DNA of 64,000 nucleotides from Firmicutes bacterium UBA4881. GTDB lineage: Bacteria > Bacillota > DTU065. The notes beneath the pieces are model-generated. The model saw only the letters and a program-made list of their open reading frames with translations. It had not been told where the DNA came from and did no database searches. The stretch spans positions 97,366-161,365 of the forward strand of contig DHDH01000001.1 of NCBI GenBank assembly GCA_002399235.1, in the 5' to 3' direction. Position numbers and translations under genes: made by a program. Positions 24,929 to 44,433 of the stretch are shown here, piece by piece (within the stretch, counting starts at the first letter, position 1; each line of letters opens with the position of its first letter).

Positions 24929-25431
24929 TTAAGATGATCATTTTCAGATAAGGTTTATAGTTTTAGCTCTAAAAAATAAAAGTAGCCATAAGATATAATT
25001 GGTTTTGACGAAAAAGGTGGATAAATATAGTACCTATTTCTGTTAAAAAATTCGCTAAGATGTTTGTTAAAGCTAACCCTGATTATTTTCTCAACCAGAT
25101 CACCAGTAGCTTAGAAGTAGCAATTAAGAGAAAAAAAGAGGGCTGAAAGTGTTCTAACTTCTGAAATACTATTTGGGCCATTGGAAGTGCAGTAACAGGG
25201 TAGGATATCAGTTTTACCTTCCTTACAGGTGAAACCAATGAAGCAAACAACTTCGAAATAACTTAGGTCTGTTATTAAATCAGTTTTTATAAGAAAGATG
25301 TTCTTTTTCTACAAGGAAGGGAGCATCTTTTTTTGTGATTAAGTGAAAAGCATTGCTTAAAAAAATAGAAGGGTAATCTAGCCTGAGTTATTAAAGTAGT
25401 ATAATAGATTGTTAAAATTGGAGGTGACAAG

Positions 25432-26202
25432 ATGGAGGGAGCAATTAATATACTTAACTTTGATCAGGTATACCAAAATCAAAAGTCTTGGCAGAGTAAT
25501 AAGTGTGAGTGGATTAACCTACTTGATCTAAAAAGTGTTAATGGTTATTGTTCATCAGGATCTTTGCGAGTAATAGATAAAAAGTTACGAAAGCGTCATA
25601 ATAAAGATATTACTTTAATTGGTAGTGGCAACTATCATTATGTTACTTATCTGCTTTTGGCGGAAAGGAAATCACCATTTTCTTTGGTTTTATTTGATAA
25701 CCATACAGAGATGATGCCACCTCCATGTAAGTCATTAGTTTCTTGCGGATCTTGGGTATTAAACTCGCTTAAGCACCTACCTTTATTGAAAAAGGTAGTA
25801 ATTATTGGGGCTAGAGCTGATCTAGCAGCAGTAATACCCAGAAAATTCAACAGTAAGGTAGCTGTTTTTTCTACGCTAAATTGGCAAGCAACTTTAGCTA
25901 ATGAGATTCTTAACGCTATTCCCACTCAAGATATCTATATTAGTATAGATAAAGATGTTCTTAATAAGTCGGAGGCTATAACTAACTGGGATCAAGGTAG
26001 TATGAAATTAGCTGATTTACTTGTTTTACTTAAGTTTCTAGGCCGCTATAAAAAAGTTTATGGTTTAGATATCTGTGGTGAGTTGCCAACGTCACCTGTA
26101 GACTTTTTTAAAAAGAAAGTTGTTAAAGCTAACCGTATTAACGAAAAAGCTAATTGTCGAATTCTAGAAGTTGTGAAAAGAGATTATCGGGAGGGTTGTT
26201 AA
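25432..26202 (+). CDS. Divergent arginase/ureohydrolase-fold protein
   Basis: Three motif blocks align with arginase-family metal sites but are degenerate: GSGNYH (vs GGDHS), FDNHTE (vs DAHxD), SIDKDVLNK (vs SxDxDxLDP). Confidence 0.45.
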   Translation: MEGAINILNFDQVYQNQKSWQSNKCEWINLLDLKSVNGYCSSGSLRVIDKKLRKRHNKDITLIGSGNYHYVTYLLLAERKSPFSLVLFDNHTEMMPPPCKSLVSCGSWVLNSLKHLPLLKKVVIIGARADLAAVIPRKFNSKVAVFSTLNWQATLANEILNAIPTQDIYISIDKDVLNKSEAITNWDQGSMKLADLLVLLKFLGRYKKVYGLDICGELPTSPVDFFKKKVVKANRINEKANCRILEVVKRDYREGC

Positions 26203-26287
26203 TAACATCAGCTTACTGATTGAGACCTAGGTTAGAAGCAAGACTATTTTAGATTCTCTACTCCTACTAAAATAGTATAATACCTAG

Positions 26288-26324
26288 AAGGCCTAGCCAG
26301 GTGATAGAAACCTAGCTAGGCCTT
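26288..26324. terminator. Bidirectional terminator between convergent genes
   Basis: Perfect 10 bp inverted repeat AAGGCCTAGC..GCTAGGCCTT between a + strand gene end (26202) and a - strand gene end (26350). Confidence 0.6.
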
Positions 26325-26349
26325 AAATCAACAGTTATTTGGGTTTTGG

Positions 26350-27429
26350 TTAATAACGGTAAATCACAGGATCCCTATTTTGCGAATCCTCTAAAACAGG
26401 GCTTTGAACGAAACGATTATCTTTTAGGAGATTAATCTCTCTAGCCATGGCATATTTAGTGTAAGTGAAGATTTCTTGAACTGTAATTTTGCGATCTTGA
26501 TTGAAATCAGCACTACGGTTAATTAAACCTAGAAGAAAATGCTTAGTAAAAAAGCCTAAGCCGCCATCATTGATGTATTGATAGGAGTTTTGTTCGGCAG
26601 TAGAAGAAGCTAAAACTACATAACCAGAATTTTGCAAAGCTCTAGTGGCAACCTTGCCATCAAAAAGTGAACCAGCGTTACAAGAATCGACAATGAGAGT
26701 AATATCTTTGGTAGGCATAGAGTTAAAGATCTCTTTTAGCTCGGTGTCAGTTAAACAATCAGGATTGGGGTCAGAGTTAGAGAAATTGTAGAGAGCTAAA
26801 AGATCTTGTGTACCATGACCAGAAAAATAAACTACCAGATAATCTTCTGGTTTTAGTTGGTTTTTAATCTTTTGGAATAGCGAAAGGATATTTTCTTTAT
26901 TAGCATCCTCGTCGCGTACGGTGATAACATTGCTAGGACCTTTAGTTAGAAACTCCTCTACAGCAGTTGCATCAGCAGAGTTAAGCGGACTGTAATTAGC
27001 ATAATTACTAACACCAATAATTAGATAATGGGCTTTGCCAACAGGGAAAAAAACTGTGTTTATTACATTAGGTAGGACTTCAACATCATATTGGTAAGGC
27101 GCACTTAACTGTGGAGCTTCCACTGTGATTGTTTGCATTCCTTCTAATAAGCCTTCTAGGAGGAAACAGCCATCTTCTTTAACTAAGGTTGCCTTCTTAG
27201 TTCCGTTAACAGAAACTTTGGCTCCAGAGAGAGGGGCATAACCAAGAGGTATAGCTGAGCTTGGTTTAAGGGTTGTTATTTCCTCTAAACTAGGATAGAG
27301 AATCTCTTCTCTAATGACAATTTTACCAGCGATACTTCCCTTTTTTATATTTTGGATAAGACATCCTGTTAACAATGTACTAAGTAATAATAACCAAACT
27401 AGGGCTAATAACCATTTAGTTTTTTTCAT
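26350..27429 (-). CDS. Caspase-domain (peptidase C14) lipoprotein with C-terminal EF-hand-like loop
   Basis: Lipobox LLTGC, then a beta-sandwich N-domain. The His/Cys dyad sits in YFSGHG and DSCNAG. The C-terminus carries a DFNQDRKITVQE Ca-binding-like loop. Start set at MKKTKW. Confidence 0.75.
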   Translation of the reverse strand: MKKTKWLLALVWLLLLSTLLTGCLIQNIKKGSIAGKIVIREEILYPSLEEITTLKPSSAIPLGYAPLSGAKVSVNGTKKATLVKEDGCFLLEGLLEGMQTITVEAPQLSAPYQYDVEVLPNVINTVFFPVGKAHYLIIGVSNYANYSPLNSADATAVEEFLTKGPSNVITVRDEDANKENILSLFQKIKNQLKPEDYLVVYFSGHGTQDLLALYNFSNSDPNPDCLTDTELKEIFNSMPTKDITLIVDSCNAGSLFDGKVATRALQNSGYVVLASSTAEQNSYQYINDGGLGFFTKHFLLGLINRSADFNQDRKITVQEIFTYTKYAMAREINLLKDNRFVQSPVLEDSQNRDPVIYRY

Positions 27430-42392: not shown

Positions 42393-42901
42393 TGAGCCGA
42401 TACTTAGCTGCTGTAATAGTCTTACTCTGTATTTTTTGGGGGTTAAGGTCAAAAGTAAATGTCTATGAATATTTTTTACAGGGTGCTAAAGCAGGTGTTA
42501 TCGCACTTTGGCAGATATTACCGGCTATTTTAGGCATTTTTATAGCAATTTCTTTGGTTAGAAATAGTCTTGTATGGGGGTATATAATAAATAAGTTAGC
42601 TTACCTAATGAATCCATTGGGTATACCACAGGATACAGCAGCACTTTTATTAGTAAGGCCATTTTCCGGTTCTGCTTCTTTAGCTGTACTTACCCAGATT
42701 TTTATAGCTGAAGGTCCTGACTCGCAGTCTGGATTAATAGCTTCCACATTTATGGCCAGTACAGAAACTGTTTTTTATGTTGTGATGACTTATTTAACTT
42801 CTGTACAGATTAAACGTAGCCGTCATATACTACCTGTTACCATCGTCATTCAATTAATTGGGTTAATTTGCACTACTTTCTTATGGCACCTTCTGGCATA
42901 G
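42392..42901 (+). CDS. spmB: Spore maturation protein B
   Basis: Second Gate-domain membrane protein. Its start overlaps the spmA stop. Confidence 0.8.
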   Translation: MSRYLAAVIVLLCIFWGLRSKVNVYEYFLQGAKAGVIALWQILPAILGIFIAISLVRNSLVWGYIINKLAYLMNPLGIPQDTAALLLVRPFSGSASLAVLTQIFIAEGPDSQSGLIASTFMASTETVFYVVMTYLTSVQIKRSRHILPVTIVIQLIGLICTTFLWHLLA

Positions 42902-42975
42902 TTTATACTATCTCCCATGGTTTATAAGAATACGGCCTGCTATAATGACATTTAGGCCGAAAGGGGTGAGCATTT

Positions 42976-43488
42976 GTGCAAGAGGTAAAGGTACGTGGGG
43001 TAGGGGTTGATCCCAAAACAATGAATACTGTTTTATTACTTTCTAGTGGAGACAAAATTTTACCGATTTTAATTGGTGTAGCAGAAGCTACTGCTATTGC
43101 TTCGGAATTAGAAGGACATAAAAGTGTTAGACCACAAACGCATGATCTGTTTTTAATAGTGTTAGAGAAGATGAATAGTTATATTAAAGAAGTAAATATT
43201 ACTGATGTTAAAGATGATACCTATTATGCAATTATAAAGCTGGCAAAGGTTGGAGCTGTAGACGACATAGAGATCGATGCTCGCCCTAGTGATGCTGTGG
43301 CTTTAGCCTTAAGAAGCAAAGCACCTATCTTTATTAGCGATAAACTCGCTGAAGAGTTAGTTTTAATGGAGATTGAGACCAAGGAAGAGAAATTAACAGA
43401 ACCTATTGACACAGAAGAGGTCGAAGCATTTAAGCAATTTCTTGATGAAGTTACTCCGGAAGAATGGAATCGATTTTTAAATCATTAA
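42976..43488 (+). CDS. Bifunctional nuclease family protein (DUF151/BFN)
   Basis: DARPSDAVALALR core motif. GTG start with an AAAGGGG RBS. Confidence 0.7.
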   Translation: MQEVKVRGVGVDPKTMNTVLLLSSGDKILPILIGVAEATAIASELEGHKSVRPQTHDLFLIVLEKMNSYIKEVNITDVKDDTYYAIIKLAKVGAVDDIEIDARPSDAVALALRSKAPIFISDKLAEELVLMEIETKEEKLTEPIDTEEVEAFKQFLDEVTPEEWNRFLNH

Positions 43489-43520
43489 AATATAAAAGAG
43501 AAAAATCTAGAACTAAAAAA

Positions 43521-43550
43521 AGACGCTGTGACTTCACAGCGTCTTTTTTA
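43521..43550 (+). terminator. Rho-independent terminator
   Basis: AGACGCTGTG-actt-CACAGCGTCT followed by a T6 run. Confidence 0.85.
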
Positions 43551-44433
43551 TTCCAGACTACGATGATCAAATAACTTACTGATAACTTGGTTGTTGTTAC
43601 CATTAGCAAGTAGAGTAGCGTTGCTTGTAATTATGTATCAATGCAAGTAAACATTGTTTGCATAAGCAATGTTCGATCTAAAGGAAAAGGACAAGGCTAG
43701 TCTAAGGTTAATTAATTTTCCCAAATAAAATAGAAGGTCGTTAATTACTAGAAATATTTAGAGAAAATATAGCTACGAGCAACAAGTAGCCAGGACTAAA
43801 GACCTAAATGATGAATTACCAGGACTAAAGCCCCAAAGAAAAAGAAGTATTTTACTAATAAGGAGTGAACTAATATTTAGCAAACAAAAAAAGAGTATGC
43901 AATAGCTTTGAGGCATTCTTAACTAGAAAAGCTAGGTTAAATTGTCAGTCACGGGATGTTTTGGTCGAAGAAATATGAGTTTTCTAGTAGAGAATCCCAC
44001 TGAAGACCTATAACTATTATGCAGGATAGCATCTAATAGTTGTAGAAATAGCAAGTCATGCAAGACATGATCTATATTTTATGCGTTTTTTAATGAATAA
44101 TTGGACAAGTACTTTTTTGGTTTACCTAGTCTATATTGAGAGGTTTTATTTTGTTATTGAAGAATGTTAAAATTTTCTAGCCGCATCTATGACTAAGTGA
44201 GGTAAATAATCTTGCCTACAGGTAGAGTAAAAATTGATATTGATAATTTTTGTAAGAAAAGAATAAGAAGGGTGGTGAAAACTGCTACAAGATTAGGCGA
44301 AAAAGATATGATTGGCTCGAAGTGTAATTTATTCTAATAACCAGTTTTCCAAACACTAAGTTAATAAATAAGTTATCCTAAGCCTATTAGTCTTTATATT
44401 CTCCTAAAGGTTACTTGTGGCAGTAGAAAAAAT

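Follow-up and report, generated by a model that had tools for sequence, protein, structure and literature searches.

A 19.5-kb segment of mixed gene content lies between hslU and flgB in Firmicutes bacterium UBA4881. It was studied within a 64-kb stretch of contig DHDH01000001.1, hereafter the window. An initial annotation, made from the sequence alone, had placed the segment at 24929-44433. Both borders were confirmed to the nucleotide, with hslU running from 23561 to 24928 and flgB beginning at 44434. The left flank (20038-24928, plus strand) is composed of topA, a codV/xerC-like recombinase gene, hslV and hslU, assigned by Pfam, and its order is kept in the relatives described below. The right flank (44434-50228, plus strand) is composed of flgB, flgC, fliE, fliF, fliG, fliH and fliI, the start of a fla/che-type operon. 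Further left, the order is Bacillus-like too, with smc, ftsY, ffh, rpsP, rimM, trmD, a ylqF-like GTPase gene and rnhB. Because both flanks and the wider left flank keep this order, the segment is located inside a strongly conserved Firmicutes backbone. The initial annotation had recognized the Bacillus-type order of the flanks, which is borne out by Pfam and NCBIfam matches, and the same order was verified in Bacillales, Anaerovibrio and Syntrophomonas. A literature search on cod/fla synteny gave nothing useful.

Both flanks agree in order and orientation with the B. subtilis-type junction, topA-(trmFO)-codV-clpQ(hslV)-clpY(hslU)-codY/flgB. In contrast to that junction, codY and trmFO are gone from the locus, and the family to which the window belongs has 6.7-19.5 kb of other genes between hslU and flgB. 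The initial annotation had reported codY as missing from its usual slot, and tblastn with two Pfam-verified CodY queries indeed returned no match anywhere in the 64-kb window (best E=0.13). A codY remnant was also sought in the window and in relatives L088-L100; none was found, and no lineage has codY after hslU. The outgroup panel was a species-representative genome scan with HslU, in which the matches listed are all distant (≤59% identity) and include 17 Firmicutes loci. Among the matches listed, intact codY starts ~25-240 nt past the hslU stop in 14 of the 17 Firmicutes loci, is fragmented in one and is missing from two. Three Bacillales, as well as Anaerovibrio (Negativicutes) and Syntrophomonas, have the order hslU-codY-flgB-flgC-fliE.... 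Because this arrangement is found across several classes, it would most simply be ancestral. The trmFO gene (GIDA domain) lies between topA and codV in the outgroup loci of Cytobacillus and Syntrophomonas (L014, L057). Neither the window nor any other family member has it at that position; topA and codV abut or overlap there (window 22076-22107).

Gene content was assigned by Pfam and NCBIfam scans of non-overlapping open reading frames (ORFs) of at least 80 amino acids (aa) in 24929-44433. The initial annotation had listed genes of unrelated function on both strands, and nearly every one of its gene calls was confirmed. The genes fall into two modules. Module A is on the minus strand and adjoins hslU. 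It is composed of a Peptidase_C14 caspase-like lipoprotein gene (26350-27453; Pfam), whose product has an LLTGC lipobox and a CarboxypepD_reg-like N-terminal domain; a DagK/YegS-type lipid kinase gene (27416-28309; Pfam DAGK_cat and YegS_C), which overlaps the caspase gene by 38 nt; and a cassette of dnaE2 (28456-31245), orf81 (31270-31515) and an imuB-like ORF (31463-32305). Module B is mostly on the plus strand. It begins with a DJ-1/PfpI gene (32649-33155) and continues with spoIID (34183-35244), the class II ribonucleotide reductase (RNR) gene nrdJ (35331-39770) and a gene for a xylose-isomerase-like TIM-barrel protein (AP_endonuc_2; 39833-40609), all identified by Pfam. These are followed by a minus-strand gene for a SleB/CwlJ-like spore cortex hydrolase with two LysM domains and a Hydrolase_2 domain (40824-41573), and by plus-strand genes for two Gate-domain membrane proteins. 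The first of these is spmA-like (41823-42392; 19 bits, under the Pfam cut-off), and the second is spmB-like (42392-42901; 31.1 bits, over it). A bifunctional nuclease gene (BFN_dom, Pfam; 42976-43488, plus strand) is the last of module B. Two further plus-strand genes are restricted to a few lineages: an arginase-fold ORF of 256 aa (25432-26202; Pfam PF00491, E=3e-9) between hslU and the caspase gene, and a CobW-like GTPase gene (33157-34104) between DJ-1 and spoIID.

Relatives were gathered as contigs with HslU or SpoIID homologues and were mapped by tblastn; all are metagenome contigs. HslU homologues form a tight family at 95, 78, 75 and 73% identity, followed by a drop to ~60%, and SpoIID homologues are found at 98% and 69-60%, then at ≤47%. 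Between lineages, HslU is 70-76% identical and DnaE2 66-70%. At least five further species-level lineages have a common backbone with the window: hslU, then minus-strand caspase-dagK-dnaE2-orf81-imuB-like, then DJ-1-spoIID-nrdJ-isomerase-sleB-spmAB-nuclease, then flgB. This order is read through to flgB in L099/L100, L097, L098 and L101, and its left part is read in L089, L091 and L094. The caspase-like gene adjoins hslU and dagK is kept in all relatives. Identities between the proteins of the window and those of its relatives are similar within and outside the segment, and those of DJ-1 are 72-78%.

The lineages differ from one another in small pieces. The closest, L094-96 (HslU 95%), is arranged as the window is, arginase-fold gene included. 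L091/92/99/100 (HslU 75%) have the backbone with cobW after DJ-1, nrdJ intron 1 only and no arginase-fold gene. L097 (GCA_018435125.1; HslU 75%, partial gene) has an AraC/GyrI regulator gene between the imuB-like gene and DJ-1, no cobW and two nrdJ introns. In L089/90/98 (GCA_035402525.1; HslU 73%), a GntR-ABC-two membrane ORFs module lies at that same place, cobW is absent, and L098 has intron 1 only; L101/102 (GCA_028684605.1; SpoIID 60%) are alike but have both introns. What varies is thus the arginase-fold gene (window species and 95% relative), the CobW-like gene (two lineages), the AraC/GyrI gene (one), the GntR-ABC genes (two), nrdJ intron 2 (patchy) and, in one nested lineage, the position of the whole DJ-1 to nuclease block. 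The arginase-fold gene is absent from L088, L089, L091, L097 and L099, and because it is restricted to the window species and the 95% relative, it counts as a gain of that lineage, placed between the hslU and caspase-like genes. Its single sequence had no PDB sequence match. Only the window lineage and that of L091/L099 have the CobW-like gene, at 50% identity; L097, L098, L101 and L103 are without it. No convincing remnant of it was found in the DJ-1/spoIID spacers of lineages without the gene (best E=0.007, 22% identity). As side observations, the CobW-like proteins of the window and L091 are 50% identical where their neighbors DJ-1 and SpoIID are 77% and 68% identical, and of the NCBIfam models, one named 'CobW-related selenoprotein' matches best, at a score far under threshold.

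The exception is L088 (HslU 78%), where caspase-dagK-dnaE2-orf81-imuB-like is followed directly by flgB. A clean difference of 12.4 kb separates L088 from L097, and the sequences to either side of it are 87.6% identical in nucleotides. In L097 the junction falls at 7455|19871, and L088 has 147 unique bp instead (L088 17616-17762 versus L097 7456-19870), with no flanking repeats at the breakpoints. Neighbor-joining (NJ) trees of HslU (outgroup-rooted) and of DnaE2 pair L088 with L097 as sisters (DnaE2 92%) and place L088 within the carriers of module B. A JGI contig, L103 (1-12974), encodes DJ-1 through BFN at the same 87.6% identity to L097, followed by proS and not flgB. Most simply, module B would have moved to another site of the genome in an L088/L103 lineage, with the two contigs taken to represent one genome.

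Such differences raise the question of whether the hslU/flgB slot is a plasticity zone, prone to recombination, in which module B (~11 kb) can leave and re-enter as one piece and the content results from repeated turnover. At least six independent indel events in ~7 lineages, the relocation of all of module B among them, are in line with this, as is the imuB/DJ-1 spacer, which received two different inserts. However, five lineages keep one and the same backbone order although their proteins have diverged by 25-30%, no repeats are found at the L088/L097 breakpoints, no recombinase or transposase genes lie within the segment, and module B is made up of housekeeping and sporulation genes. We consider a plasticity zone unlikely. 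The initial annotation had spoken of a variable region between conserved blocks; some pieces do vary among relatives, but the backbone is stable in the five further lineages.

The same comparison bears on whether the segment is a recently acquired genomic island that displaced codY. It resembles genomic islands in its functionally unrelated genes that break synteny, on mixed strands, and in its AT-rich spacers, and dnaE2 cassettes are known at different chromosomal sites in other Bacillota. Unlike genomic islands, the segment is without atypical composition, an integrase, boundaries marked by a tRNA gene or direct repeats, and patchy presence in close relatives. Its GC content is 39.1%, compared to 38.7% for the window. 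Tetranucleotide distances to the window mean do not separate 17 windows inside the segment from 39 outside it (Mann-Whitney p=0.67), and z stays at or below 0.9 in all windows inside. No integrase, transposase, conjugation or phage genes were found in the segment by Pfam and NCBIfam scans, and a tyrosine recombinase is encoded only outside it, by the conserved codV/xerC-like gene. There are no tRNA genes in the 64 kb. Neither border of the segment has direct or inverted repeats longer than chance matches, and the sole notable repeat is the domain V of the introns. Among close relatives, the segment does not come and go as one unit; only small pieces vary. Moreover, the arrangement is common to deeply diverged relatives, gene identities to these relatives are alike inside and outside the segment, and the segment carries spoIID, a sleB-like gene, spmAB and nrdJ. 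A recent island is very improbable, and the slot change is an ordinary genome rearrangement. Two suggestions of the initial annotation do not hold up. Terminators, offered as a mark of the region, are not enriched (19 terminator-like hairpins versus 15.2 +/- 3.9 in shuffled sequences). The overall composition of the segment, for which it had proposed a k-mer plot, is not unusual. The accessory insertion fails because relatives share the backbone order from hslU to flgB, largely so in the five further lineages, which the annotation itself had named as the finding that would speak against it.

A chimeric contig, in which assembly or binning joined the hslU and flgB neighborhoods to unrelated DNA, would also break synteny. 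The sequence is metagenome-derived, and one assembly of the locus (L002) contains N-gaps. Nevertheless, the FlgC protein of the window turned up on 22 contigs across assemblies held at NCBI, JGI and ENA, GCA_002409345.1, GCA_002397445.1 and GCA_002411305.1 among them, and the contigs of relatives found through HslU show the same left junction. Chimerism can be set aside as extremely improbable because the independent assemblies, at seven loci compared, are 99.9-100% identical to the window over the right half of the segment and the flgB junction. A literature search returned no paper mentioning the accessions of these metagenome-assembled genomes. Two small differences were seen among the assemblies: L005, an ENA assembly of this species, lacks 90 bp within its spmA-like gene (L005 5142/5141, window 42118-42207), and L002 and L006 have N-gaps in nrdJ/fliF and near fliJ.

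In the polymerase cassette of module A, the first gene in transcriptional order is the imuB-like ORF, a truncated Y-family-polymerase-like ORF of 280 aa with sub-threshold IMS_HHH_1 and DinB matches. Its single sequence gave no PDB sequence match, and only the family profile found the Pol IV structure 7yll_A (E=5.6e-4, query 55-198 versus chain 138-293), as well as REV1. The match to 7yll_A spans the thumb and the C-terminal part of the palm, and the catalytic N-terminal region is without counterpart. Because the Pol IV match covers only residues 138-293, the N-terminal catalytic palm appears to be missing from the ImuB-like ORF. The second gene, orf81 (81 aa), has a weak Pfam DUF6504 match under threshold (E=0.023) and is homologous to the bona fide DUF6504 protein that L106 encodes at this place in its cassette (BLASTP E=2e-7). 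If DUF6504 is assumed to be ImuB-C, orf81 probably encodes a standalone ImuB-C-like protein. The third gene encodes a DnaE2-type error-prone Pol III alpha of 929 aa with PHP, DNA_pol3_alpha, finger, HHH_6 and OB domains. Outside the family, homologues at ~40% identity are common across Bacillota and carry the annotation error-prone DNA polymerase; the window protein is ~100 aa shorter than the nearest of them. In one such genome, L106, the cassette is composed of a 430-aa ORF, the DUF6504 protein and DnaE2, in an unrelated neighborhood, and the imuB-like ORF matches its L106 counterpart weakly (BLASTP E=0.055). Homologues of the caspase, dagK and dnaE2 genes were found near hslU in none of 80 outgroup loci among the matches listed.

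Upstream of the imuB-like gene lies a LexA (Cheo) box, CGAACACATGTTC (32494-32506), of the pattern CGAAC-N4-GTTC. It is directly downstream of a minus-strand promoter-like site (32542-32514), and 0.61 chance matches to the pattern are expected per window. The box is kept upstream of the imuB-like gene in four other lineages: L094 (position 18718), L088 (17519), L091/L099 (L091 15997) and L097 (7358). It lies ~190 nt from the imuB-like start codon in the window and L094, and 15-19 nt in the other lineages. The exact box was not found in L089 or L101. These features suggest that the imuB-like/orf81/dnaE2 cassette would function in mutagenesis under SOS control.

An ImuA-less operon type, composed of an inactive PolY, a standalone ImuB-C and DnaE2, has been described from Kyrpidia tusciae (Timinskas & Venclovas 2019, PMC6511836). 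The cassette of module A has the same three co-directional genes in the order Y-family-like, small DUF6504/ImuB-C-like and DnaE2, no imuA in the locus and a Gram-positive LexA box upstream. It differs from the Kyrpidia tusciae type in that the Y-family-like protein is 280 aa long, with most of the N-terminal palm gone. By its gene order and domain matches, the cassette appears to match this already described type of mutagenesis operon.

In module B, nrdJ is split into three exons (35331-35561, 36828-37421 and 38352-39770; plus strand). The initial annotation had described the gene as intron-laden, and two group II introns are confirmed by domain V/VI matches at 36769-36827 and 38257-38351 (Rfam RF00029, 63 and 67 bits). 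Intron 1 (35562-36827) contains a maturase-only ORF (35998-36759), and intron 2 (37422-38351) has no ORF of more than 51 codons. Both have GTGCG...AC ends, and their exon junctions are in frame. The limits of intron 2 coincide exactly with the nrdJ of L099, which is without it. All lineages seen have intron 1. Intron 2 occurs in the window, L097, L103 and L101; L099 and L098 are without it. The two introns have domain V alone in common. The intron 1 ORF has a weak Intron_maturas2 match, and no RVT_1 (reverse-transcriptase) domain was detected in it. A homologue at 55% identity is over the Intron_maturas2 threshold, and more distant homologues have RVT_1 and maturase domains; only two close representative homologues were found among 1.84 billion proteins. 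Group II introns in bacterial housekeeping genes can be served by one intron-encoded maturase, as in the RNR and dnaN genes of Trichodesmium. As in Trichodesmium, two group II introns are located in an RNR gene, one with a maturase-type ORF and one without. The introns described here differ in that the ORF is without a detectable reverse-transcriptase domain and the introns are alike in domain V only.

Module B contains functions that are core for an endospore former: spoIID, the sleB-like gene, the spmAB-like genes and nrdJ. Because spoIID of the nearest outgroup is in the canonical murA-spoIID-M23-spoIIID-mbl context, the DJ-1-spoIID-nrdJ order appears to be a family-specific re-assembly and not an imported block. 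A small hydrophobic ORF of 47 aa (40684-40827) lies between the isomerase gene and the 3' end of the sleB-like gene, with which it is convergent and overlaps by 4 nt. It is also called in relatives, with 64-80% conservation of the first 25 residues.

The large AT-rich spacers reported in the initial annotation are real: one of 503 bp (24929-25431) next to hslU, and a leader/promoter region of 945 bp (43489-44433) upstream of flgB, each with a GC content of 31.4% compared to 38.7% for the window. The former is ~200 bp longer than its counterpart in the 95% relative. The flgB leader is 167-643 bp long in relatives, and the BFN-flgB spacer of the window has no detectable DNA similarity to theirs. 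A perfect 16-bp hairpin terminator (43516-43549) follows the BFN gene. The leader also carries a 19-nt tandem-like repeat (43790-43808/43819-43837). When the whole segment, with its two large spacers, was scanned against Rfam by E-value, the intron domain V regions were the sole two matches; no riboswitch was found upstream of flgB or nrdJ. Outside the segment, a branched-chain-amino-acid-type ABC transporter (Peripla_BP_6, two BPD_transp_2 and two ABC_tran) and a CBS-ACT protein are encoded at 13767-18991, between the rnhB/HD-domain genes and topA, and are kept in all relatives; in Bacillus, this position is occupied by sucCD-dprA.

Taken together, the 19.5 kb is best explained if the codY slot was filled long ago, in a lineage-specific way and with native genes, and if this filling has been inherited vertically within an uncultured family of spore-forming, flagellated Bacillota represented by metagenomes only. 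We assign this reading a probability of about 0.8. Before the family diversified, codY and trmFO would have been removed from the conserved smc...topA-codV-hslVU/flgB... backbone. Two modules would then have come between hslU and flgB: module A, with the caspase-like lipoprotein, the DagK-type kinase and the truncated Y-family/ImuB-C-like/DnaE2 cassette, probably controlled by its LexA box; and module B, with DJ-1, spoIID, the intron-bearing nrdJ, the TIM-barrel isomerase, the sleB-like gene, spmAB and the BFN nuclease. Later events would have been small and located at a few intergenic soft spots. The arginase-fold gene would have been gained between hslU and the caspase gene; the divergent imuB/DJ-1 promoter region would have received the AraC/GyrI regulator in one lineage and the GntR-ABC module in two; and the CobW-like gene would belong to a soft spot between DJ-1 and spoIID. 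The second nrdJ intron would have been gained or lost, and in one nested lineage all of module B would have moved beside proS.

Several points weigh against this reading. The ancestral hslU-codY-flgB state, and with it the proposed order of events, would have to be drawn from distant Firmicutes because the closest outgroups are far away (HslU ~60%). That L088 and L103 belong to one genome is an inference. The phylogeny was built by plain NJ from one or two proteins, and the relatives are all metagenome contigs. The region has more indels than its flanks, and for that reason calling it variable was not entirely wrong. Finally, the absence of codY is seen at the level of the locus and the 64-kb window, and the gene is either lost or moved.

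A synteny break relative to Bacillus looks island-like when a single sequence is viewed, and the relatives correct this by revealing a stable, family-wide arrangement. The locus is a small, well-resolved example of a conserved Firmicutes backbone (smc...hslU/fla/che) being remodelled: codY and trmFO are gone from the locus, a dnaE2 cassette was captured, and indels are concentrated at a divergent promoter region. More tentatively, it is possible that the family has lost CodY and TrmFO altogether, that an ImuA-less mutasome under SOS control and a newly assembled sporulation/RNR block took over the junction, and that the flagellar operon now depends on its own long leader, without read-through from the cod operon or control by CodY. 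If codY is indeed absent genome-wide, the family would offer a useful example, found in nature, of an endospore former without CodY.

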